Below, one piece after another: positions 1,872 to 13,508 of a stretch of 17,712 bases of DNA. Numbering within the stretch: the stretch's first letter is position 1; each line of letters starts with the position of its first letter. The notes beneath the pieces were generated by a model. It saw only the letters and a program-made list of their open reading frames with translations. It searched no databases and was not told the DNA's origin. Where the stretch lies: positions 1-17,712 of the IMG/VR virus record IMGVR_UViG_2537561977_000021, one strand, 5' to 3'. Position numbers and translations under genes: made by a program. This DNA comes from a virus. Taxonomy: Duplodnaviria > Heunggongvirae > Uroviricota > Caudoviricetes.

Positions 1872-2027
1872 TTACTCCTCAGGTTCGTAAGCTGTGAAGA
1901 CAGCGACCTCCGTCTGGCCGGTTCGGATTCGTACCTCGCAGAGGTCTTTCCTCGTTACCAGTGCCGTCACTATGACGGTTAAACAGATGACGATAAGGGC
2001 GATTAACATCGCCTTTTGCTGCTTCAT
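1872..2027 (-). CDS. hokD: Hok-family type I toxin HokD (RelF), 51 aa
   Basis: MKQQKAMLIALIVICLTVIVTALVTRKDLCEVRIRTGQTEVAVFTAYEPEE matches HokD as recalled. An in-frame upstream ATG at 2084 gives a mok-like leader ORF. The leader resembles the plasmid R1 hok mRNA leader (GGUGCUUGAGGC..., AGCCUCUUAC...CAAGGAGAAG). Confidence 0.9.
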   Translation of the reverse strand: MKQQKAMLIALIVICLTVIVTALVTRKDLCEVRIRTGQTEVAVFTAYEPEE

Positions 2028-2076
2028 AGCCTGCTTCTCCTTGCCTTTCGGCACGTAAGAGGCTAACCTACATGTG

Positions 2077-2161
2077 TTCAGCATGGATTGAGCCTCAGAT
2101 TAATGTTAAGCGTCTTGCAGGACGCGTAATGTTAACTGGGGCTTTTCTCTATCTGCCTTTT
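2077..2161 (+). ncRNA. putative Sok-like antisense RNA of the hokD locus
   Basis: Plus-strand promoter-like TTGCCT (2041-2046), 17-bp spacer, TAACCT (2064-2069). The transcript would be antisense to the mok start (2082-2084) and end near the T-run at 2158-2161. Placement is by analogy with hok/sok of R1; ends are approximate. Confidence 0.3.
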
Positions 2162-2203
2162 GGTGTTCATGCCTGAGACAGATAGCCTCAAGCACCCGCA
2201 GTC

Positions 2204-2231: not shown

Positions 2232-2340
2232 ACCGTTTTTGTCCGGCACAGTAAATATCCAACTAAACCAATAGCGTGAGGTAGCCTGAGTTTAACGGAC
2301 ACTCCTTCCTGAAATAGAATGGCATCAGAAGGAGCTAATA

Positions 2341-2643
2341 ATGAGCAGAAAAACCCAACGTTACTCTAAAGAGTTCAAAGCCGAAGCTGTCAGAACGGTT
2401 CTTGAAAATCAACTTTCGATCAGTGAAGGCGCTTCCCGATTATCCCTTCCTGAAGGCACTTTAGGACAATGGGTTACCGCCGCCAGAAAAGGGCTCGGTA
2501 CTCCTGGTTCCCGCACGGTGGCTGAACTGGAATCTGAAATTCTGCAACTGCGTAAGGCGTTAAATGAAGCTCGCCTTGAGCGAGATATATTAAAAAAAGC
2601 AACAGCGTATTTTGCACAGGAGTCGCTGAAAAATACGCGTTAA
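2341..2643 (+). CDS. IS3-family (IS600) transposase OrfA, HTH DNA-binding
   Basis: 100-aa ORF MSRKTQRYSKEFKAEAV... with a leucine-zipper-like C-terminus. Slippery site A AAA AAA G at 2592-2599 near its 3' end. Confidence 0.85.
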   Translation: MSRKTQRYSKEFKAEAVRTVLENQLSISEGASRLSLPEGTLGQWVTAARKGLGTPGSRTVAELESEILQLRKALNEARLERDILKKATAYFAQESLKNTR

Positions 2644-2678
2644 TCGAACAATGGCGACAACAATTTCCCATTGAAGCG

Positions 2679-3497
2679 ATGTGTCAGGTATTTGGTGTAT
2701 CCAGGAGCGGTTATTACAACTGGGTACAGCATGAACCCTCAGACAGAAAACAAAGTGATGAGCGGCTAAAACTGGAGATTAAGGTGGCACATATCCGCAC
2801 TCGCGAAACATATGGAACCCGGCGGCTCCAGACGGAGCTGGCAGAGAATGGCATCATCGTTGGTCGTGACCGACTGGCACGTCTTCGTAAGGAGCTAAGG
2901 CTACGCTGTAAGCAGAAACGCAAGTTCAGAGCGACTACGAACTCGAACCACAATCTGCCAGTTGCGCCAAATCTGCTGAACCAGACGTTCGCTCCTACAG
3001 CACCAAATCAGGTCTGGGTGGCGGACCTGACGTATGTTGCCACACAGGAGGGATGGTTGTACCTCGCTGGCATCAAAGATGTTTATACGTGCGAAATTGT
3101 CGGCTACGCCATGGGAGAGCGCATGACAAAAGAGCTGACAGGTAAAGCCCTGTTTATGGCGCTCAGGAGCCAGCGCCCACCTGCCGGGCTAATCCACCAC
3201 TCTGATCGAGGTTCACAGTACTGCGCATACGATTACCGGGTCATACAGGAGCAGTTTGGTCTGAAAACATCAATGTCGCGTAAAGGTAACTGTTACGACA
3301 ACGCTCCGATGGAAAGCTTCTGGGGAACGCTGAAAAATGAGAGCCTGAGCCACTATCGTTTTAATAACCGGGATGAAGCCATCTCAGTAATACGGGAATA
3401 CATTGAGATTTTCTACAATCGTCAGCGTCGTCACTCTCGTCTGGGGAATATCTCCCCGGCAGCCTTCAGGGAAAAATATCATCAGATGGCTGCTTAA
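2679..3497 (+). CDS. IS3-family (IS600) transposase OrfB, DDE catalytic domain; made as an OrfAB fusion by -1 frameshift
   Basis: 272 aa from the first ATG. The frame is open upstream to the slippery site (reads ...KYALIEQWRQQFPIEAMCQVFGVSRSGYY). DDE integrase-core motifs present (WVADLTY, HSDRGSQY, YDNAPMESFWGTLK). Confidence 0.85.
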   Translation: MCQVFGVSRSGYYNWVQHEPSDRKQSDERLKLEIKVAHIRTRETYGTRRLQTELAENGIIVGRDRLARLRKELRLRCKQKRKFRATTNSNHNLPVAPNLLNQTFAPTAPNQVWVADLTYVATQEGWLYLAGIKDVYTCEIVGYAMGERMTKELTGKALFMALRSQRPPAGLIHHSDRGSQYCAYDYRVIQEQFGLKTSMSRKGNCYDNAPMESFWGTLKNESLSHYRFNNRDEAISVIREYIEIFYNRQRRHSRLGNISPAAFREKYHQMAA

Positions 3498-3553
3498 AAA
3501 AAGAACAAATGGTAGTGTCCGCTATTGCCAGTACACCTCAGCGTTCGCTGTAT

Positions 3554-3733
3554 TTACCGCCAGTATTCAATGCACATGACCGCCATGAACACCCCTAAAA
3601 AAAGGGCATTTATATGTCCAAACATTAATATCAAAACATCAATTTTTTCCATATACCTTGCTGTGAAGATGATGGGCATACATGATGCGAACAACCAGAA
3701 CGCAACAAACAAAAACTGCAATGCGTTTTTCAT
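3554..3733 (-). CDS. small hydrophobic protein (59 aa, about two predicted TM helices), hypothetical
   Basis: ATG at 3733 is preceded by GTAGGGGGAATA (strong SD, about 4-nt spacing). Product MKNALQFLFVAFWLFASCMPIIFTARYMEKIDVLILMFGHINALFLGVFMAVMCIEYWR. AT-rich context; stop is 14 bp from the IS600 right end. Confidence 0.35.
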   Translation of the reverse strand: MKNALQFLFVAFWLFASCMPIIFTARYMEKIDVLILMFGHINALFLGVFMAVMCIEYWR

Positions 3734-7507: not shown

Positions 7508-7933
7508 TCAATGCACAGCCAGAGTATTTCCTGCCGGACCACCACGATTCATCTGATCGAACAGAACAATCGCTGATGCAACGAAATCATCGATATCTTT
7601 CACCAGCTGTTCCTGCGTCTCCAGCAGTTCCCGAAAATAAACTGAACTGTGGCTGCGCATTCGGGCCACCAGCGGAGGCGGCATTGCCTTTTCGATCGCT
7701 GGTAACAACGCCTGAATTTTTTTAACAGCATCAGGGGTGTCTTTCTCTATCCAGCGGAAAATTTTCTGGGTATTGCGAGCCAGGGCTTCCGGATGGCTGT
7801 CGTCGTACAGTTCAGGGAACGTCATCCCCAGTTCGAAATAAGTCCGGGCTATCTCAGCCGCCGGAACTTTCTCACCATCAGGATATGCCCATGCATTCAT
7901 CGCCATACGGATGTGCTCATGCTTGATTTTCAT
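7508..7933 (-). CDS. YdaT-like (CII-like) prophage regulatory protein
   Basis: 141 aa starting MKIKHEHIRMAMNAW.... ATGA overlap with the upstream Cro-like gene. Family assignment from recalled YdaT features. Confidence 0.65.
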   Translation of the reverse strand: MKIKHEHIRMAMNAWAYPDGEKVPAAEIARTYFELGMTFPELYDDSHPEALARNTQKIFRWIEKDTPDAVKKIQALLPAIEKAMPPPLVARMRSHSSVYFRELLETQEQLVKDIDDFVASAIVLFDQMNRGGPAGNTLAVH

Positions 7934-8193
7934 GAATCACCCCCCGCCGATGGTTGTGTGTTAGCCTGAAACTCAGCAGGCAAGCCGTCAGTTGGGTTGG
8001 GGTAGGTTTTACTGTCAATCTCATGTGGGGTCACCACCCATCCCGTTGCTTCACACCAACGTAATATTTTTTCTCCTGTAAGTTTTGCACGCCCCGTTAT
8101 AACGTGGCTGACCATCCCCTGGGATGCGCCAACAATCTCAGCAAATGAACTCTGGGTTATATGAAAATGATGCAAATATTCTCCAAGATTCAT
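7930..8193 (-). CDS. YdaS/Cro-like HTH transcriptional regulator (lytic-side repressor)
   Basis: ATG at 8193 preceded by AGGGCGG; product MNLGEYLHHFHITQSSFAEIVGASQGMVSHVITGRAKLTGEKILRW... has an HTH. Divergent from the repressor gene across an operator-bearing intergenic region. The ORF-track start at 8220 is TTG. Confidence 0.75.
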   Translation of the reverse strand: MNLGEYLHHFHITQSSFAEIVGASQGMVSHVITGRAKLTGEKILRWCEATGWVVTPHEIDSKTYPNPTDGLPAEFQANTQPSAGGDS

Positions 8194-8229
8194 AATCCGC
8201 CCTATGTGATGTGTTACCAACGCATAATT

Positions 8230-8270
8230 AATAGCACTGTTATTTTTAAAAGTAAATAGCGATGCTATTT
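8230..8270. promoter_or_regulatory. OR-like operator region: two palindromic sites AATAGC-N3-GYTATT between divergent cro-like and repressor genes
   Basis: Site A AATAGCACTGTTATT (8230-8244); site B AAATAGCGATGCTATTT (8254-8270, perfect 7-bp half-sites). Candidate promoter elements overlap on both strands. Confidence 0.6.
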
Positions 8271-8304
8271 CAAAGTGATTAGCAATCTTATTAGAATTGG
8301 ATGT

Positions 8305-8805
8305 ATGAAAAGAAAATCACTGTCAGACACCGACCTCAACGCCGCCAGAAGACTGAAAGAAATCTGGATGGCAAAGAAATCTCAGTTGGGATTGACTCAG
8401 GAACGTGCGGCGGAAATTATGGGGTTTTCAACACAAGGGGCGGTAAGTCACTACCTAAATGGTCAAACCCCACTAAACCTTGAGGCTGTTCTAAAGTTTG
8501 CTGGCTTACTGAAAGTTCCCCCTGAGTCAATCAGGCCAGACATGGCAGATTTGCTGCAAATTGCAAGGATGTATTGTCGAGAACCACAGCAAGATAACAT
8601 AGTCGCATTACCAGCAGACACAGAACAAACAGAGGATGAACTACCGTTTGCCGTAGAGCCGATGGAACGAGATTTAATCCATACGTTCAGAGCTTTTCCG
8701 AAAGAAGATCAAGAACACATGCTTCAGGAGATGAAAGATAAAAAAGAATCAATGGATCGTACGGTTGCGCGGTGGTTAGCTGCACAAAAAGGCCGTCGCG
8801 CCTAA
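8305..8805 (+). CDS. CI-like prophage repressor / PaaR-like HTH (XRE family) regulator
   Basis: HTH LGLTQERAAEIMGFSTQGAVSHYLNG. Divergent from the cro-like gene and followed by the paaA-parE-like pair. ATG at 8305 (MKRKSL...) lies just downstream of TAGAAT at 8292-8297, so the mRNA may be leaderless; the alternative ATG at 8275 is not excluded. Confidence 0.7.
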   Translation: MKRKSLSDTDLNAARRLKEIWMAKKSQLGLTQERAAEIMGFSTQGAVSHYLNGQTPLNLEAVLKFAGLLKVPPESIRPDMADLLQIARMYCREPQQDNIVALPADTEQTEDELPFAVEPMERDLIHTFRAFPKEDQEHMLQEMKDKKESMDRTVARWLAAQKGRRA

Positions 8806-8824
8806 ATCAGAGGAGATATGTAAA

Positions 8825-9019
8825 ATGAGTACAGTCCTTTCCCCAATGGTTTCAGAATTTGAGACAGTTGAGCAAGAAAATAGTTACAACGAATGGCTGC
8901 GGGCCAAAGTAGCAGCAAGCCTCGCGGATCCCCGCCCGGCGATTCCGCATGATGAGGTAATGGCGGAAATGGAACAAATTATTGCCCAAATTGCTGCTGC
9001 AACTCACAGAGGTGAATAA
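8825..9019 (+). CDS. type II antitoxin, PaaA-like (ParE-associated antitoxin)
   Basis: 64 aa with GAGGAG 8 nt upstream. Sequence ...SPMVSEFETVEQENSYNEWLRAKVAASLADPRPAIPHDEV... resembles PaaA2-type antitoxins as recalled. Stop overlaps the toxin start (TAATG). Confidence 0.75.
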   Translation: MSTVLSPMVSEFETVEQENSYNEWLRAKVAASLADPRPAIPHDEVMAEMEQIIAQIAAATHRGE

Positions 9020-9309
9020 TGTTACCCGTTTTATGGCTACCATCTGCTCGTGATGATTTGCGCCAGATCGTAGCCTACATAGCTAAAGAAAATCCCGCGG
9101 CAGCACGCAGAATGAAAATTCGAATTGAAACATCCGTTTTGCCGCTCACAGAGCATCCTTACCTGTATCCTCCAAGCGAGCGAGTTCTTGGTCTTCGTGA
9201 AATTGTAACTCATCCTAACTACATCATCCTTTACCGAGTAACAGCATCAAGCATAGAAGTAGTAAATATTGTGCATTCTCGAAGACAGTATCCAGGCAAA
9301 AACAGTTAA
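9019..9309 (+). CDS. parE: ParE/RelE-family type II toxin
   Basis: 96 aa with hallmark RelE/ParE motifs (WLPSARDDLRQIVAYIAKENPAAARRM..., YIILYRV..IEVVNIVHSRR). Translationally coupled to the antitoxin. Confidence 0.85.
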   Translation: MLPVLWLPSARDDLRQIVAYIAKENPAAARRMKIRIETSVLPLTEHPYLYPPSERVLGLREIVTHPNYIILYRVTASSIEVVNIVHSRRQYPGKNS

Positions 9310-9325
9310 TTATTCCCGCCGACAG

Positions 9326-9348
9326 AACCACCTTAGGGTGGTTTTTTC
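9326..9348 (+). terminator. Rho-independent terminator ending the repressor-antitoxin-toxin operon
   Basis: AACCACC-TTAG-GGTGGTT followed by TTTTTTC. Confidence 0.7.
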
Positions 9349-9363
9349 TTGCTCCAACAAAAA

Positions 9364-9403
9364 CAATAGCGATGCTATTTACACCAAAAATAATGATGCT
9401 ATT
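9364..9403. promoter_or_regulatory. OL-like operator region: two further copies of the AATAGC-N3-GCTATT operator motif
   Basis: Site C CAATAGCGATGCTATTT (near-identical to site B) and site D AATAATGATGCTATT. They lie about 1.1 kb from the OR-like pair and upstream of the rightward early genes. Confidence 0.6.
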
Positions 9404-9582
9404 GTTTCAGGCGTCAACCCACCCCGCCCCACAGAATGCAGGGCAATACTTCGAGTTACCAGACAGTGGTCAGGGGTTAAGTAGCCAGCCCGAGGCGTAA
9501 GAACATGACGGCAGGGTTCAACTTTAACTATGCAGCAGGTTTTTGTTCCGCTCCCCCGGCGTTAAGGGGAAATGAGGTCAGC

Positions 9583-9735
9583 ATGGATACTATCAATCTT
9601 GGCAACAGCGAATCTCTGGTATGTGGCGTGTTTCCCAACCAGGACGGTACGTTCACCGCGATGACGTATACCAAAAGCAAAACGTTTAAAACCGAAGCTG
9701 GCGCGCGTCGCTGGTTATCCAGAAATACTGACTGA
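9583..9735 (+). CDS. small early protein (51 aa), YdfA-like by size and position
   Basis: ATG at 9583 with GAGG 5 nt upstream; product MDTINLGNSESLVCGVFPNQDGTFTAMTYTKSKTFKTEAGARRWLSRNTD. The ORF also extends to an upstream ATG at 9505 (alternative start). Confidence 0.45.
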   Translation: MDTINLGNSESLVCGVFPNQDGTFTAMTYTKSKTFKTEAGARRWLSRNTD

Positions 9736-10199: not shown

Positions 10200-10646
10200 C
10201 TAACCACAAAGAAATCGCATCAATTTAGATTTTGTGGGCAGCTTCTCTTGTTGTTCGATGGAAACGCCTATTTTGATCTGTGTTTTTAAGATCGCAATAT
10301 CTTTAAGTGATGACCAAATATGATTATCCGTTTTTTCCAGAATTTTTAACTGCATTTTCAATTCAGAATCAGAATATTTTTCTGCATCATCAAAAAGCTG
10401 CAAATATTCTGCGGATTTTCTCATGGCGTTACCTGACTTTTGTCCGAATCCATAAATCGTTTGGACGGTTGCGATCACAACAATAAAAACGCCAGAAATT
10501 TCCGGAATGAATCCGCCAATGACAGATGAACCGAGGATAATACTCACTACTGAGAGAAGTTTATCGAGACGACCAGTCGCTACCGAAAATAGTTGCTCAA
10601 GAAAATAGCCATATAAAATTCTGTCAAGAATATCATCCCGGTCCAT
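10200..10646 (-). CDS. two-TM membrane protein, candidate superinfection-exclusion (SieB-like position) or abortive-infection effector
   Basis: 148 aa with ATG at 10646 and AGGTGA 6 nt upstream. Hydrophobic segments LSVVSIILGSSVIGGF and VFIVVIATVQTIYGF precede a charged C-terminal domain. Low GC; opposite orientation to the surrounding early-left genes. Confidence 0.6.
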   Translation of the reverse strand: MDRDDILDRILYGYFLEQLFSVATGRLDKLLSVVSIILGSSVIGGFIPEISGVFIVVIATVQTIYGFGQKSGNAMRKSAEYLQLFDDAEKYSDSELKMQLKILEKTDNHIWSSLKDIAILKTQIKIGVSIEQQEKLPTKSKLMRFLCG

Positions 10647-10799: not shown

Positions 10800-11025
10800 A
10801 TGATTTCCTTGGATCGTTGGGGATATCCAGATTATACAGATTTCTTGTCGTTGGGGAATGACAGGAACCACCTCGCCTGACGTGGTTAAAAGCAGGCACA
10901 CAACACGAAAGCGCACGGCGAAGTCATTTCTCCCTCTGTTGCGTGTCGCCGGTATCTTCGACCGTGCGCTTCCGGTTGTGGCACTCCGCGAAATGGCGCG
11001 GCGGTAAGTATGGCGGGGTTATCCT

Positions 11026-12319
11026 CTGAGGGATCCCCAGAAAATTTAGTAAACCATTATCATATTGGTATACCGTTGCTGTAGAACTTTCAGCCCTGCG
11101 TCAAGTGACAGTGTGTTTAGTATGAGTGGAGAATGTCGAATCACATTCTCCGCCAGTTTTAATAACGAGATGACTCGCCTGTGCTTCACTGTATTTGCCT
11201 GATATTTATGATGTATCCCTTTGTTTTCCAGGCTGAAACCGCTTAACCACATAATGATACTGGCTAATGTTGCGATCAGACTCAATACCGTGACCCGCCC
11301 GGATGAATGACTGGCACCAAACCGTAGTCCAAATCCCCAGCGAGGATTTTTTTCATCCCTGAAATTTTGCTCAATTTGCATTCTACGGCTGTATAATTTC
11401 ATTACCTGTTTTGGCGAGAACTCAGTACTGTTTGTGAAAATAAACCATGGTGATTTCCCGGCAGTACGAGCTTTAGCCGTCACCGATGGTCTGGTTGCTC
11501 TTTCCTTCGAGCGTTTAAATCTACGACCTTTAGGCTTACTTTTATAAAGATAAAAATGCCCTTCATGTTGTGCATTTTTATCTCGACCCAGCAGGCCTTC
11601 ACCTAAATAAATTGCTGTCGTTGATGCTTTTGTGCCTGAGTCCGACACCTTTTCCCAGCCATTACCAACATTGTAATAATGATTGCCCAGTACCCGGCAA
11701 ATATAGGTCCAGCCACGGGAGCGGAGCTGTTGGAACCATCGCCCCTGAAAACCGGCATCTGTAATAACAATGACATCAGTCCCGGGGGAAAAGCACTCAG
11801 CAAGCGATTCCAGAAAACGCTCATGTACATCTGCATTCGCTGTCTGTGATGATGGAACGACACAACTCATCAACGGTAAAGAACGCCCGTCACATGCCAG
11901 GCTTGCCCGCAAAAGCTGAAAACGAGAGGCATGATAAGCACTCTAGTCAATGAGTATCACAACACGAGACATTCCCCGCGTAATCTTTTGGGTAATTCGC
12001 TGAAAAATGGTGGAAACCTCATTTTGCAAATGTCGATTCCCCAACAGTCGATCCACCCGCTTTATTTTGTTTTTAACTGATGCCGTACCGGTTAAATGAC
12101 GCCCGATACTGGTAAGTGTGAGGGAAGCGCCATTTATTACAGCATTAGTTGCGTCAATCAGTGATTTTTGACGGTAAAGATGCAAAGGGGCCAGTATGTT
12201 GTTAAGGAAATTTTGGCATAATGAACGTGCAGGCATAGTGGTGATCTCCTTGAAATTGTTAGCACAATCAATTAGATCACATCTCACTATGCCTGTCTTG
12301 TTTTCTGGGGATTCCTCAG
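11026..12319 (-). mobile_element. IS10-like insertion sequence (IS4 family), about 1294 bp, transposase inactivated
   Basis: Terminal inverted repeats CTGAGGGATCCCCAGAAAA (left) and TTTTCTGGGGATTCCTCAG (right). Flanking direct repeat GGGTTATCCT (11016-11025 and 12320-12329), consistent with a 9-bp target duplication; boundaries uncertain by 1 bp. Confidence 0.8.
11046..12236 (-). pseudogene. IS10-like transposase interrupted by an in-frame amber (TAG) codon
   Basis: The ORFs 11943-12347 and 11046-11912 are in the same frame, separated by TAG at 11945-11943. N-terminal motif KNKIKRVDRLLGNRHL and the C-terminal part align with IS10 transposase as recalled; the TAG sits where IS10 has Trp (TGG). 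Likely start is ATG at 12236 (MPARSL...). Confidence 0.75.
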
Positions 12320-12407
12320 GGGTTATCCTTACCCCCACAGGTAGCACCGGGTTGTCAGGTTGACCATACGCCCGAGTGACAACCCCGCCACAACATCTCC
12401 ATGTTGA

Positions 12408-12637: not shown

Positions 12638-12766
12638 CTGTGATGAAAGGTGAGAGAAAATGTTGAATGTAGCTATTGAAAACCAGAACGGGTGGAATTA
12701 TAGTGCACCTGCACCTCATAAAACGGGTGCCGGGATTGGCCTCCTGTTAATCACATTGGTGCCTGA

Positions 12767-12791
12767 ACACGCACCAAAAGCGTGTTTTTTG
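12767..12791 (+). terminator. Rho-independent terminator (ACACGC-ACCAAAA-GCGTGT + T6)
   Basis: Hairpin plus TTTTTT read directly. It lies inside the long ORF-track frame 12660-13508, arguing that Rha starts downstream. Confidence 0.55.
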
Positions 12792-12950
12792 TTGCCTGCA
12801 TTTCATCATTCAATGGCAGCTCAGGCGGGAGCTTCTCACGAAGCGCCGGGTTCCGATGTGACCGGTAAGGCCAATCCCGTCTGGGCTACCACCAATCGGA
12901 TTGGCCTCTGCGGTGGTGGCAGTACTGCTTTCACATCGGAGGATGCCGTT

Positions 12951-13508
12951 ATGGCTACTATCACTACCCTTTCTCACCCTTGTGTAACCATCGAAAATGG
13001 TCGCGCTGTCACCACATCTGTCGCCATTGCGGAATTCTTCCGCAAAATGCATAAAGACGTTCTGAAAAAAATAGACAACCTAGAATGCTCTGAGAAATTT
13101 AGCGGGCGCAATTTTGCGCCCGCCGAATATCTTGATGAGCAAGGCAAAAAACGCCCAATGTACCAGATCACCAAAAACGGCTTCGTTTTCCTGGTGATGG
13201 GATTCACTGGCAAAAAAGCCGCTGCATTTAAAGAAGCCTACATTGCTGAGTTCGATCGCATGGAGGCCGAACTGCGCCAGAATAACACCCCACCCACTGA
13301 CAAAATAATTCCAGGCGATGGCCGCACCCTGGTTGTTCACTTCGACGAACGCGGCAACATCAGATTCACCGAAACCGTTCCTGATGGCGCACGGGTCTGT
13401 ACCATGGAGACTTTCCGGTTTTATCTGGAAGAACAGGGATGGACTCTTGTTAACCGAGGCGCAATTAAAAATATGACTGTAGAGCAATTACTCAAAATTC
13501 ATTGTTGA
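12951..13508 (+). CDS. Rha-family phage regulatory protein (Phage_pRha domain)
   Basis: ATG at 12951 with GGAGGA 7 nt upstream. Motifs VTTSVAIAEFFRKMHKDVLKKIDNL...YQITKNGFVFLVMGFTGKKAAAFKEAYIAEFDRMEAEL match the Rha family as recalled. The ORF-track start at 12660 is rejected in favour of this one. Confidence 0.7.
   Translation: MATITTLSHPCVTIENGRAVTTSVAIAEFFRKMHKDVLKKIDNLECSEKFSGRNFAPAEYLDEQGKKRPMYQITKNGFVFLVMGFTGKKAAAFKEAYIAEFDRMEAELRQNNTPPTDKIIPGDGRTLVVHFDERGNIRFTETVPDGARVCTMETFRFYLEEQGWTLVNRGAIKNMTVEQLLKIHC

Follow-up and report, generated by a model that had tools for sequence, protein, structure and literature searches.

A putative prophage immunity region in which a lambda-CI-like repressor shares its operon with a PaaA–ParE toxin–antitoxin pair

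The closest known system to the locus described herein is paaR2-paaA2-parE2 of prophage CP-933P (Sp12) in Escherichia coli O157:H7 (Hallez 2010; PMC8630535), a species lineage in which an equivalent gene arrangement was resolved experimentally between 2010 and 2023. In its original description, paaR-paaA-parE is presented as a three-component toxin–antitoxin (TA) system. Published work on CP-933P shows that PaaR2 is the analogue of CI, YdaS that of Cro and YdaT that of CII (Jurenas et al. 2021; PMC8630535). PaaR2 leaves footprints on OR, represses both PR and PL, and both activates and represses PRM; the paaR2 gene is leaderless like cI, the switch is bistable, and the locus stabilises a plasmid (PMC8630535). 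The promoter PL933P adjoins the paaR2 operon and is repressed by PaaR2 and by YdaS (PMC8630535). With regard to the cargo, ParE2 is toxic, PaaA2 neutralises it and is labile to ClpXP/ClpAP, and the locus is addictive (PMC8630535). That the regulator doubles as an immunity repressor is already the published conclusion for this prophage (PMC8630535).

The window examined in the current study is a stretch of 17,712 nucleotides (17.7 kb) from an IMG/VR virus record. Open reading frame (ORF) calls place three same-strand genes at 8305-9309, coding for a helix-turn-helix (HTH) repressor, a PaaA-family antitoxin and a ParE toxin (Table 1), and the identical three CDSs are annotated by RefSeq at an E. 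coli locus (L001) that is 99.5% identical. The original prediction had described a repressor gene followed by a TAATG-coupled antitoxin–toxin pair and a terminator, all flanked by operators, and every one of these elements was found where it had been placed. Its reading of the regulator as the immunity repressor is also supported, in that the gene occupies the lambdoid cI position, is divergent from the cro-like and YdaT genes, and shares its operators on both sides. We judge that the region is most likely the immunity (lysis–lysogeny) switch of an E. coli or Shigella prophage of the lambdoid, Rac/Qin/CP-933-like kind, which carries the type II TA pair PaaA–ParE as cargo in the repressor operon. 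The locus is a new allele, or third immunity type, of a system already known, rather than a system of a new kind. The comparisons reported below directly establish which genes it contains, their homologies, the operator repeats, the mosaic structure and the action of purifying selection.

Table 1. Positions of the genes and of the predicted regulatory sites of the immunity region, numbered along the window
Feature	Position	Strand	Evidence or remark
ydaT-type gene, 141 aa, CII-analogue activator	7508..7933	-	Pfam YdaT_toxin E 1e-9; PHROG 163 E 9e-45
Candidate YdaT site TTGATTTTCATGAATCAC	7923..7940		One mismatch to TTGATT-N6-AATCAA operator; cro/ydaT junction
cro-like HTH gene, 87 aa, YdaS/Cro analogue	7930..8193	-	HTH_3 E 5e-4; PHROG 35 transcriptional repressor E 2e-16
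OR1-like operator AATAGCACTGTTATT	8230..8244		Overlaps predicted PR-like -10 (TATTAA, 8228-8233, - strand)
OR2-like operator AATAGCGATGCTATT, perfect palindrome	8255..8269		Abuts PR -35 (TTTACT, 8251-8256, - strand) and PRM -35
PRM-like promoter, TTCAAA-17-TAGAAT	8269..8297	+	9/12 consensus positions; both hexamers kept in 80%-diverged L002
Tentative OR3-like site ATTAGCAATCTTATT, 3 mismatches	8278..8292		23 bp from OR2; overlaps PRM core
Immunity repressor, 166 aa	8305..8805	+	HTH_3 and lambda CI N-terminal domain homology
paaA-type antitoxin, 64 aa	8825..9019	+	PF21217 (PaaA2) E 3e-23; PDB 3zbe (PaaA2) E 1.4e-23
parE-type toxin, 96 aa	9019..9309	+	PF05016 E 1.8e-17; PDB 5cw7 (ParE2) E 6.7e-37
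Intrinsic terminator of the repressor-paaA-parE operon	9324..9352	+	9-bp stem (9324-9345), 4 G-C pairs, then T run
OL operators AATAGCGATGCTATT (9365-9379) and AATAATGATGCTATT (9389-9403)	9365..9403		Overlap PL-like -35 and -10
PL-like promoter, TTTACA-16-TATTGT, TG-extended -10	9378..9405	+	Predicted driver of ydfA-like/dicB-side early operon

The repressor is predicted to comprise a five-helix, lambda-CI-like DNA-binding domain (residues ~1-91), a disordered linker (92-118) and a helical C-terminal domain of the PaaR type (119-166). The N-terminal domain matches lambda CI (PDB 1lmb) with an E value of 1.3e-9 in a phmmer search, and its predicted structure superposes on lambda CI in Foldseek with target-normalised TM-scores of 0.81-0.93 and ~40% identity over 85-90 residues. 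The same domain gives no match to PaaR1, to PaaR2 or to the structures of the PaaR2 N-terminal domain (PDB 7nkv/8c3k). Judged by these sequence and model comparisons, the DNA-binding head is a true homologue of the lambda CI N-terminal domain and is unrelated to the PaaR1 and PaaR2 heads. The last ~44-48 residues, by contrast, are shared with PaaR1 and PaaR2 at 52-69% identity, and at the level of sequence the protein is a domain-swapped relative of both. The likeness to PaaR proposed in the original prediction consequently stands for the C-terminal ~48 residues but not for the DNA-binding domain, and the protein is not a full orthologue. A longer form of 176 aa starting from a GTG at 8275 was rejected, given that the lambda CI alignment begins at residue 2 of the 166-aa form and that RefSeq annotates 166 aa. 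No second repressor candidate was found within the immunity region. In lambda CI, residues E34 and D38 contact sigma-70, and these correspond to E33 and E37 of the present repressor. Because these acidic residues are kept and the centre of OR2 lies ~43 bp upstream of the repressor ATG, the repressor probably activates PRM.

The palindrome AATAGC-N3-GCTATT, when up to two mismatches are permitted, occurs four times in the window (at 8230, 8255, 9365 and 9389), with all copies confined to the two intergenic regions that flank the operon, two per side. Approximately 0.58 copies are expected by chance, and four were reached in 1 of 200 shuffles. The OR3-like site matches at chance level and is backed only by its spacing and by a comparable site at the equivalent position of L002, a diverged locus of the same immunity type as the window. 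A leftward PR-like promoter can be proposed from its hexamers, of which the -10 element is weak, and the promoter scanner did not call it. The PRM-like promoter would start transcription at ~8304-8305, that is, at the repressor ATG, and would thus yield a leaderless mRNA like those of cI and paaR2; no Shine-Dalgarno sequence precedes 8305. The PL-like promoter occupies the same position as PL933P in CP-933P, and the early-left operon beyond it begins at 9505 with a DUF1391/YdfA gene (9505-9735). The intervening leader (9415-9505) gave no fold signal (z 0.11) and no Rfam match, and neither a structured RNA nor a nut-like element was found there. L002 retains the operators and the promoter hexamers even though its synonymous divergence from the window is saturated.

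On the other side of the repressor lie the divergent cro-like gene, which is also an annotated RefSeq CDS in L001, and the ydaT-type gene, the second gene of the rightward (cro-side) operon. The cro-like protein is 82% identical to its counterpart in L002 and just 31% identical to that of the PaaR1 locus, and YdaT is 92% and 82% identical to the proteins of the PaaR1 and PaaR2 loci, respectively. PHROG 163, which the ydaT-type gene matches, is labelled ‘CII-like transcriptional activator’; its function is taken from published work (PMC8630535; PMC9986795), in which YdaT and lambda CII are analogous in function but not homologous (PMC9986795). The single match to the YdaT operator in the window (TTGATT-N6-AATCAC) is not significant as a count, with 1.75 expected at two or fewer mismatches. 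Its position agrees with that of the footprinted YdaT site (PMC9986795), and TTGATTTTCATGAATCAC is probably the OM site of a PRE-like promoter that reads towards the repressor.

Downstream of the repressor, both members of the pair fall in the PaaA2 and ParE families, rather than in an unrelated family. The antitoxin gave no HTH match in Pfam and is without a DNA-binding domain. Its ATG follows the repressor stop by 19 nt, with GAGGAG 8 nt 5' of the start codon, and neither a terminator-like nor a promoter-like site lies in this gap. The stop codon of the antitoxin gene and the start codon of the toxin gene are merged in TAATG (9017-9021), preceded by GAGGTG, and through this overlap the toxin is predicted to be translationally coupled to the antitoxin. 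Given that a 19-nt gap followed by a 1-nt overlap leaves no room for a promoter, paaA and parE are expected to be transcribed with the repressor. The sole candidate for an internal promoter, located in the repressor gene (8392-8420), was discarded since it belongs to a set no larger than expected from shuffled sequences. Residues 1-93 of ParE align with ParE2 (PDB 5cw7) without gaps and the C-terminus is therefore intact, which answers the concern, raised with the original prediction, that the toxin might have lost conserved C-terminal residues.

CP-933P carries its genes and sites in the same order as the window, namely ydaT, a cro-like gene, OR, the regulator, paaA, parE, a terminator, OL/PL and a ydfA-like gene. 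Identity to the CP-933P counterparts is 67% for both PaaA and ParE, and 52% for the regulator tail (~44 residues). PaaR2 likewise is without an S24 domain, and the leaderless PRM layout predicted here has been demonstrated there. However, PaaR2 has 123 aa, begins with MQKKE and possesses a head unrelated in sequence to that of the 166-aa repressor, the operators are of the GTTTAGT type instead of AATAGC-N3-GCTATT, and the cro gene also differs. With a different head, different operators and a different cro gene, the region is very probably heteroimmune to CP-933P. Among named systems, the closest TA relative is paaR1-paaA1-parE1 of CP-933M (Sp4) in E. coli O157:H7 (L003, ATCC 43894), with identities of 78% for PaaA, 83% for ParE and 69% for the repressor tail, so the family resemblance noted in the original prediction is well founded for the TA pair. 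We assigned L003 to PaaR1 by exclusion, as it is the other Paa locus of an EDL933-derived genome and is not identical to the ParE2 sequence in the PDB. Its flanks are the same as those of the window, including an ECs1072-family gene and ydaT, but its regulator (133 aa) has another HTH domain and its operators are of the AAAAACTGT/ACAGTTTTT type.

The region also resembles lambda cI-rexA-rexB. Both have a homologous repressor N-terminal domain, a divergent cro gene, and accessory genes that are co-transcribed with cI (as predicted for the window); operators ~23-25 bp apart overlap PR/PRM, and a second set lies over PL beyond the accessory genes. The proposal that the pair occupies the rexAB-equivalent position agrees with an explicit statement that paaA2-parE2 replaces rexAB (PMC9986795, 2023). 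There is no RexA/RexB homology according to the Pfam assignments of the pair, and only the genomic position is shared. The window further differs from lambda in having just two clear operators per side, YdaT in place of CII, and what is predicted to be a short helical PaaR-type tail as its oligomerisation domain. Pfam detects no Peptidase_S24 (LexA/S24 autocleavage) domain in the repressor, whose C-terminal part is predicted as two helices, and RecA-mediated induction is therefore not expected, unlike with lambda CI. With classical type II ParD-ParE systems, such as those of RK2 and Vibrio cholerae (ParDE2), the pair shares the ParE fold (PF05016) and presumably neutralisation by direct antitoxin binding. 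It departs from them in that PaaA lacks a DNA-binding domain and would not regulate its own operon, transcription being controlled instead, as predicted, by a separate phage repressor.

In the mechanism that we propose, every binding, regulatory and toxicity step is extrapolated, either from sequence or from the CP-933P homologue. The repressor would bind AATAGC-N3-GCTATT through its lambda-CI-like head and oligomerise through its helical PaaR-type tail. When bound to OR1 and OR2 it would silence the leftward cro-ydaT promoter, and when bound to OL it would silence the PL-like promoter 3' of the operon. It is also expected to activate its own leaderless PRM-like promoter and, at higher occupancy, to repress PRM through the weak OR3. 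Given that the head and operators are unlike those of PaaR2, the order of operator filling, the activation of PRM and the leaderless start are extrapolations. Transcription of paaA-parE could start at PRM or, alternatively, at a PRE-like promoter activated by YdaT, with coupled translation of the two ORFs, and PaaA would bind and neutralise ParE directly while playing no part in DNA binding. Upon loss of the locus, protease-labile PaaA would decay and, by analogy with ParE2, topoisomerase-directed ParE would be freed, such that addiction may stabilise the immunity region against deletion or replacement. Since the repressor has no RecA-cleavable domain, induction would have to proceed through Cro competition or an antirepressor. 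The original prediction held that this arrangement ties toxin expression to the lysogenic state. The CP-933P homologue bears this idea out only in part: its TA genes were transcribed whichever state the switch was in, and ParE2 activation was seen in neither state under the conditions tested (PMC8630535). Any benefit of coupling the TA pair to the repressor is conjectural.

Comparison of the immunity types reveals a mosaic. Each type has an unrelated N-terminal part of cro, OR, repressor head and OL segment, whereas ydaT, the repressor tail, paaA, parE and the leader 3' of PL are conserved from type to type. A distinct operator motif characterises the loci of the window and L002, those of the PaaR1 type and those of the PaaR2 type, and it is present in OR as well as in OL; the PaaR2-type motif recovered in our analysis, GTTTAGT, matches the published consensus (PMC8630535). 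The cargo slot is also variable. HigB–HigA occupies this slot in a relative that shares the head but has a diverged tail, and a 244-aa relative with the same tail carries HipA_2 and DUF3037. These two relatives rule out a strict coupling of the repressor tail to PaaA–ParE, and the C-terminal domain is thus not specific to this pair. The PaaR-type tail and the cargo slot may constitute a portable back end onto which heads are swapped within the linker, with the ParE cassette guarding against partial immunity swaps, although we regard this conjecture as quite doubtful. The heads concerned would be lambda-CI-like here and PaaR1-like or PaaR2-like elsewhere, and there would also be two heads in a tandem fusion. 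If the conjecture were true, a ParE cassette located between OR/head and OL would force the joint inheritance of the operator sets and the matching head, a role more specific than generic prophage stabilisation.

Full-length PaaA/ParE-type loci were found in 606 of 5426 complete E. coli genomes. A scan of GTDB species representatives with the PaaR alignment gave no confirmed locus and is uninformative on distribution outside E. coli. Among sequenced phages, no record contains the allele studied here, the region being matched at 5% only and to the conserved leader. The repressor search of these phages returned lambda-type cI alone (~31% identity), and the ParE search returned a sole match, to the PaaR2-type locus of phage Evi.

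Other roles can be imagined for these genes. The pair might serve mainly in defence against phages, by abortive infection or exclusion, and so be a functional counterpart of RexAB instead of an addiction or stabilisation module. In this scenario a superinfecting phage would shut off host or prophage transcription, labile PaaA would decay, and ParE would poison DNA topology and abort the infection. We consider this unlikely. None of the three proteins (0/3) matches a PADLOC defence model, and the papers on the homologue report addiction in the form of plasmid stabilisation, with no ParE2 activation in the conditions tested and phage defence unreported. Nevertheless, the pair sits in the rexAB slot and would be expressed with the repressor in lysogens, the other TA or defence-like cargo found in relatives fits an exchangeable accessory-gene slot, and the phage Evi locus indicates that the arrangement is not limited to decayed prophages. 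The anti-phage and addiction roles, moreover, are not mutually exclusive.

It is very improbable that the genes form a self-contained three-component TA system, wherein the HTH protein autoregulates the TA operon only and is not the prophage immunity repressor. Such a system would match the original description of paaR-paaA-parE, and paaA and parE directly follow a repressor with the conserved tail in 55/55 related loci obtained from E. coli genome, phage and IMG/VR searches, all of which had paaA-parE after a PaaR tail. However, the operator motif recurs at OL, ~1.1 kb away, over the early-left promoter; the repressor is divergent from the cro and CII analogues, shares its operators and has a head homologous to lambda CI; and the immunity region offers no other repressor candidate. 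PR and PL of CP-933P, furthermore, are repressed by PaaR2, and one repressor with the same tail precedes HipA_2 and DUF3037 instead. We find it scarcely credible that prophage decay has left the locus inert, as a remnant without any present function. All five ORFs of the immunity region are intact (5/5), and their dN/dS values relative to L002 are 0.04-0.14, with synonymous sites ~60% different. The values for parE, paaA and the repressor are 0.04-0.09 (antitoxin 0.05, toxin 0.04), and strong purifying selection acts on each of these genes. The conserved operators and promoter hexamers, together with the frequency of such loci in complete E. coli genomes, likewise argue against a remnant. There is decay elsewhere, in that the prophage of the window has IS3-family and IS4-like insertions, both absent from the near-identical L001, where the Q and terminase genes are frameshifted. 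Because of these two insertions and the frameshifts in L001, the prophage is probably a defective one, whose switch may have ceased to govern a lytic cycle.

As an immunity switch with PaaA–ParE cargo, the allele provides a natural comparison for the CP-933P model, since it combines the same cargo and tail with a lambda-CI-type head and other operators. It could show to which part of the repressor, head or tail, such features of the PaaR2 switch as bistability, octamer-mediated OR-OL looping and PRM activation should be ascribed. Beyond this comparison and its value for annotation, the locus raises no new question. With regard to annotation, the trio of a 166-aa HTH protein, a RelB-family antitoxin and a RelE-ParE toxin, which is present in Shigella sonnei and ~70 complete E. 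coli genomes, ought to be interpreted as the repressor operon of a prophage immunity region, and the neighbouring ‘toxin YdaT’ should be annotated as a CII analogue, not as a toxin.

A real three-gene operon, consisting of a repressor gene, a translationally coupled antitoxin-toxin pair and a terminator, lies between two sets of operators, and each of these elements was found where it had been placed by the original prediction (see table). The antitoxin gene begins 19 nt after the repressor gene, with a Shine-Dalgarno sequence (GAGGAG) 8 nt 5' of its ATG, and shares one base with the toxin gene, which is preceded by GAGGTG. Across the 17.7-kb window there are exactly four occurrences of the 15-bp palindrome AATAGC-N3-GCTATT (at most two mismatches), against approximately 0.58 matches expected by chance.

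The 64-aa protein is a PaaA2-family antitoxin (PF21217, E 3e-23), with a hit to 3zbe, the solved structure of PaaA2 (E 1.4e-23). The 96-aa protein falls in the ParE toxin family (PF05016) and aligns to the E. coli O157:H7 toxin ParE2 (5cw7, E 6.7e-37). Given that this alignment spans residues 1-93 without gaps, the C-terminus of the toxin, flagged earlier as a part that might have been lost, is intact. The 166-aa repressor carries an HTH_3 domain and shows homology over its first ~90 residues to the N-terminal domain of lambda CI (1lmb, E 1.3e-9). An AlphaFold model (21-sequence input alignment, mean pLDDT 76.5) predicts five helices within residues 8-91, a disordered linker (92-118) and a helix-turn-long-helix (119-165), and its N-terminal domain resembles lambda CI N-terminal-domain structures with ~40% identity and target-normalised TM-scores of 0.81-0.93.

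Features of the immunity region and surrounding prophage (positions on the window)
Feature	Position	Strand	Remarks
sok antisense RNA	2022-2197	-	Rfam RF01794, 118.9 bits
IS3-family insertion	2277-3540		orfA 2341-2643, orfB 2679-3497; comparison with L001
YdaT-family gene	7508-7933	-	after cro-like gene; PHROGs label CII-like activator
YdaT site	7923-7940		one mismatch; cro/ydaT junction
Cro-like HTH gene	7930-8193	-	divergent from repressor
OR1 palindrome	8230-8244		5' of repressor gene; motif scan
PR-like promoter			TTTACT-17-TATTAA; predicted, leftward, weak; bracketed by OR1 and OR2; read by eye
OR2 palindrome	8255-8269		5' of repressor gene; motif scan
PRM-like promoter	8269-8297		TTCAAA-17-TAGAAT; promoter scan
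Repressor ORF	8305-8805	+	166 aa
PaaA-type antitoxin ORF	8825-9019	+	64 aa
TAATG overlap	9017-9021
ParE-type toxin ORF	9019-9309	+	96 aa
Terminator	9324-9345		9-bp stem and T run, 3' of toxin gene
OL palindromes	9365, 9389		3' of terminator; motif scan
PL-like promoter	9378-9405		TTTACA-16-TATTGT; promoter scan; toward ydfA-like early-left genes
Leader	9415-9505		~90 nt, between PL-like promoter and ydfA-like gene
148-aa ORF	10200-10646	-	in early-left region, opposite strand
IS4-like insertion	11022-12347		DDE transposase 11046-11912 plus 11943-12347; comparison with L001
Rha/Ash/anti-repressor-like ORF	12660-13508	+	282 aa
RNA matches (isrK, C4)	12711-12790 and 12809-12896		within preceding ORF
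Mosaic: ydaT	7508-7927		conserved vs PaaR1/PaaR2 loci
Mosaic: cro N-terminal part, OR, repressor N-terminal domain	8048-8644		unrelated to PaaR1/PaaR2 loci
Mosaic: repressor tail, paaA, parE	8645-9295		related to PaaR1/PaaR2 loci
Mosaic: terminator and OL	9296-9422		unrelated to PaaR1/PaaR2 loci
Mosaic: leader and downstream genes	9423 onward		~92% conserved vs PaaR1/PaaR2 loci

Systems of this kind have already been characterised by experiment. The paaR2-paaA2-parE2 genes are located within the immunity region of prophage CP-933P, where PaaR2 is a functional CI analogue that footprints OR, represses PR and PL and stimulates PRM at a low level; its mRNA is leaderless, as for cI, and YdaS is Cro-like and YdaT CII-like in action (Jurenas et al. 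2021, PMC8630535). The same locus exhibits bistability and stabilises an unstable plasmid, its toxin-antitoxin genes are transcribed in both switch states without activation of ParE2, and its authors propose that the pair guards the immunity region against rearrangement (PMC8630535). Elsewhere, paaA2-parE2 is described in place of rexA and rexB, with PaaR2 in place of CI, and the YdaT operator is defined as TTGATT-N6-AATCAA, where ydaS ends (Prolic-Kalinsek et al. 2023, PMC9986795). PDB entries for the PaaR2 N-terminal domain (7nkv, 8c3k, 8c3l) are titled 'Phage repressor protein CI'. Thus, the proposal that the regulator doubles as the immunity repressor is supported by both sequence and the published homologue, but it is not new, because it has been published for CP-933P and PaaR2 was deposited as CI (PMC8630535, PMC9986795). 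A description of the window's own allele was not found in the searchable literature.

Three loci were retrieved for comparison: an ~80% diverged allele that shares the window's immunity type (L002), a PaaR1-type locus (L003) and a PaaR2-type locus from ATCC 25922 (L004). The last encodes a ParE identical to the solved ParE2 chain across the entire 92 aa and a regulator that begins MQKKE, as published; L003, the other Paa locus, from an EDL933-derived genome, is taken to be paaR1-paaA1-parE1 of CP-933M. Identity to the window's proteins in L002, L003 and L004, respectively, is 86%, 78% and 67% for PaaA and 88%, 83% and 67% for ParE. The repressor is 80% identical over its whole length in L002, whereas those of L003 and L004 match in the C-terminal ~48 residues only. 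A 60-nt sliding-window identity profile against the PaaR1 and PaaR2 loci yields a mosaic of related and unrelated blocks, and each immunity type has a private operator motif that is the same at OR and OL: AATAGC-N3-GCTATT in the window and L002, AAAAACTGT/ACAGTTTTT in the PaaR1-type locus, and GTTTAGT, consistent with the published consensus, in the PaaR2-type locus. This combination is a classic hallmark of lambdoid phages that are heteroimmune. Judged from sequence, the window adds a third immunity type, which has its own operators and a repressor in which a genuine lambda-CI head has been swapped onto a PaaR tail.

The leader that adjoins OL is ~92% conserved in all three immunity types; several sequenced coliphages (Evi, Tritos, vB_EcoS-*) carry it at 95-98% identity, and the adjoining operator segment is unrelated between types. 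Neither an RNA fold signal (z 0.11) nor an Rfam match was obtained for the leader, which may contain a nut-like or translational signal. Labels in databases lag behind the literature: in L002-L004 and the near-identical prophage locus L001, RefSeq names PaaA 'RelB family antitoxin' or 'hypothetical protein', and YdaT is still 'toxin YdaT family protein' in RefSeq/Pfam although it is a CII analogue. In PHROGs v4, PaaA and ParE both fall into families of 'unknown function'.

Our regulatory reading of this allele draws on its sequence together with the CP-933P homologue. Transcription from the PRM-like promoter would start at about the repressor ATG, which lacks a preceding Shine-Dalgarno sequence, and the promoter hexamers are kept in L002 although ~60% of synonymous sites differ between the alleles. 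Autoactivation by the repressor is plausible, given that the centre of OR2 lies ~43 bp 5' of the ATG, near the lambda OR2-PRM geometry, and that E33 and E37 align with the lambda CI sigma-contact residues E34 and D38. Because there is no room for a promoter of their own, paaA and parE would be expressed from the repressor transcript. The PR-like site was not called by the promoter scanner. At OL, the two palindromes overlap the PL-like promoter at its -35 and -10 elements. The YdaT site is positioned where CP-933P has PRE933P and its OM site. Values of dN/dS against L002 (parE 0.04, paaA 0.05, repressor 0.085) indicate purifying selection on all three genes.

No S24 peptidase domain is present in the 166-aa repressor, and RecA-mediated cleavage is therefore excluded. 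A possible induction route for such a repressor is the anti-repressor-like gene at 12660-13508. Its product matches Pfam Phage_pRha and Phage_ASH and PHROG anti-repressor families, and the 5' part of the ORF, whose annotated start probably overruns the RNA genes, contains Rfam matches to isrK (62.6 bits) and C4 antisense RNA (71.3 bits). The module resembles P1 immI (c4-icd-ant) or the Gifsy-1 isrK-anrP antirepressor module.

Among 5426 complete E. coli genomes, approximately 842 contain a PaaA/ParE-type match, which is full-length in 606. The window's immunity type was found in 72 genomes, with at least 80% of its 1.6-kb region covered; a PaaR2-type locus was found in phage Evi. In all 55 loci compared (five reference loci and 50 from IMG/VR, the latter chosen as carriers of the window's repressor or its tail), paaA-parE lies directly 3' of the repressor. 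However, the PaaR tail is not restricted to this cargo, given that HipA_2 and DUF3037 come after repressors of ~244 aa (P0013-P0023; L059-L061) that share the cro/ydaT context and join the lambda-CI-like head of the window's repressor to a second, PaaR1-like HTH domain and a PaaR tail. Likewise, in L056-L058 (Salmonella enterica subsp. diarizonae and metagenomes), HigB-HigA occupies the slot after a 154-aa repressor with this same lambda-CI-like head, a diverged helical tail and 47% identity overall. Thus, the position after the repressor is an exchangeable cargo slot, comparable to that of rexAB in lambda. Two IMG/VR loci (L049 and L050, about 2800-3625) carry tandem PaaR genes, PaaR2-like then PaaR1-like, with a single paaA-parE pair 3' of them; this arrangement may be an intermediate on the way to the fused dual-HTH repressors.

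The region shares 99.5% identity with a prophage of E. coli FDAARGOS_944 (L001), where RefSeq annotates the same CDSs, and Shigella sonnei proteins match the repressor at 99% identity. The surrounding genes (hokD/sok, RusA, DUF968, a replication gene, ydfA, an exonuclease and an integrase) are a Rac/Qin/CP-933-type lambdoid prophage set. Given the two IS insertions relative to L001, of which the IS4-like element interrupts the early-left (PL) operon, and the frameshifted Q and terminase genes of L001, the window's prophage is probably defective. The two elements fit a Shigella-like, IS-rich, defective prophage. A hokD-type hok/sok type I locus constitutes its second toxin-antitoxin system besides PaaA-ParE. 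The 148-aa ORF, also present in L002, belongs to PHROG 6315 (unknown function) and gives a weak SLATT-like PADLOC match (RTasSLATT, E 2e-4); it may be a membrane-protein accessory gene.
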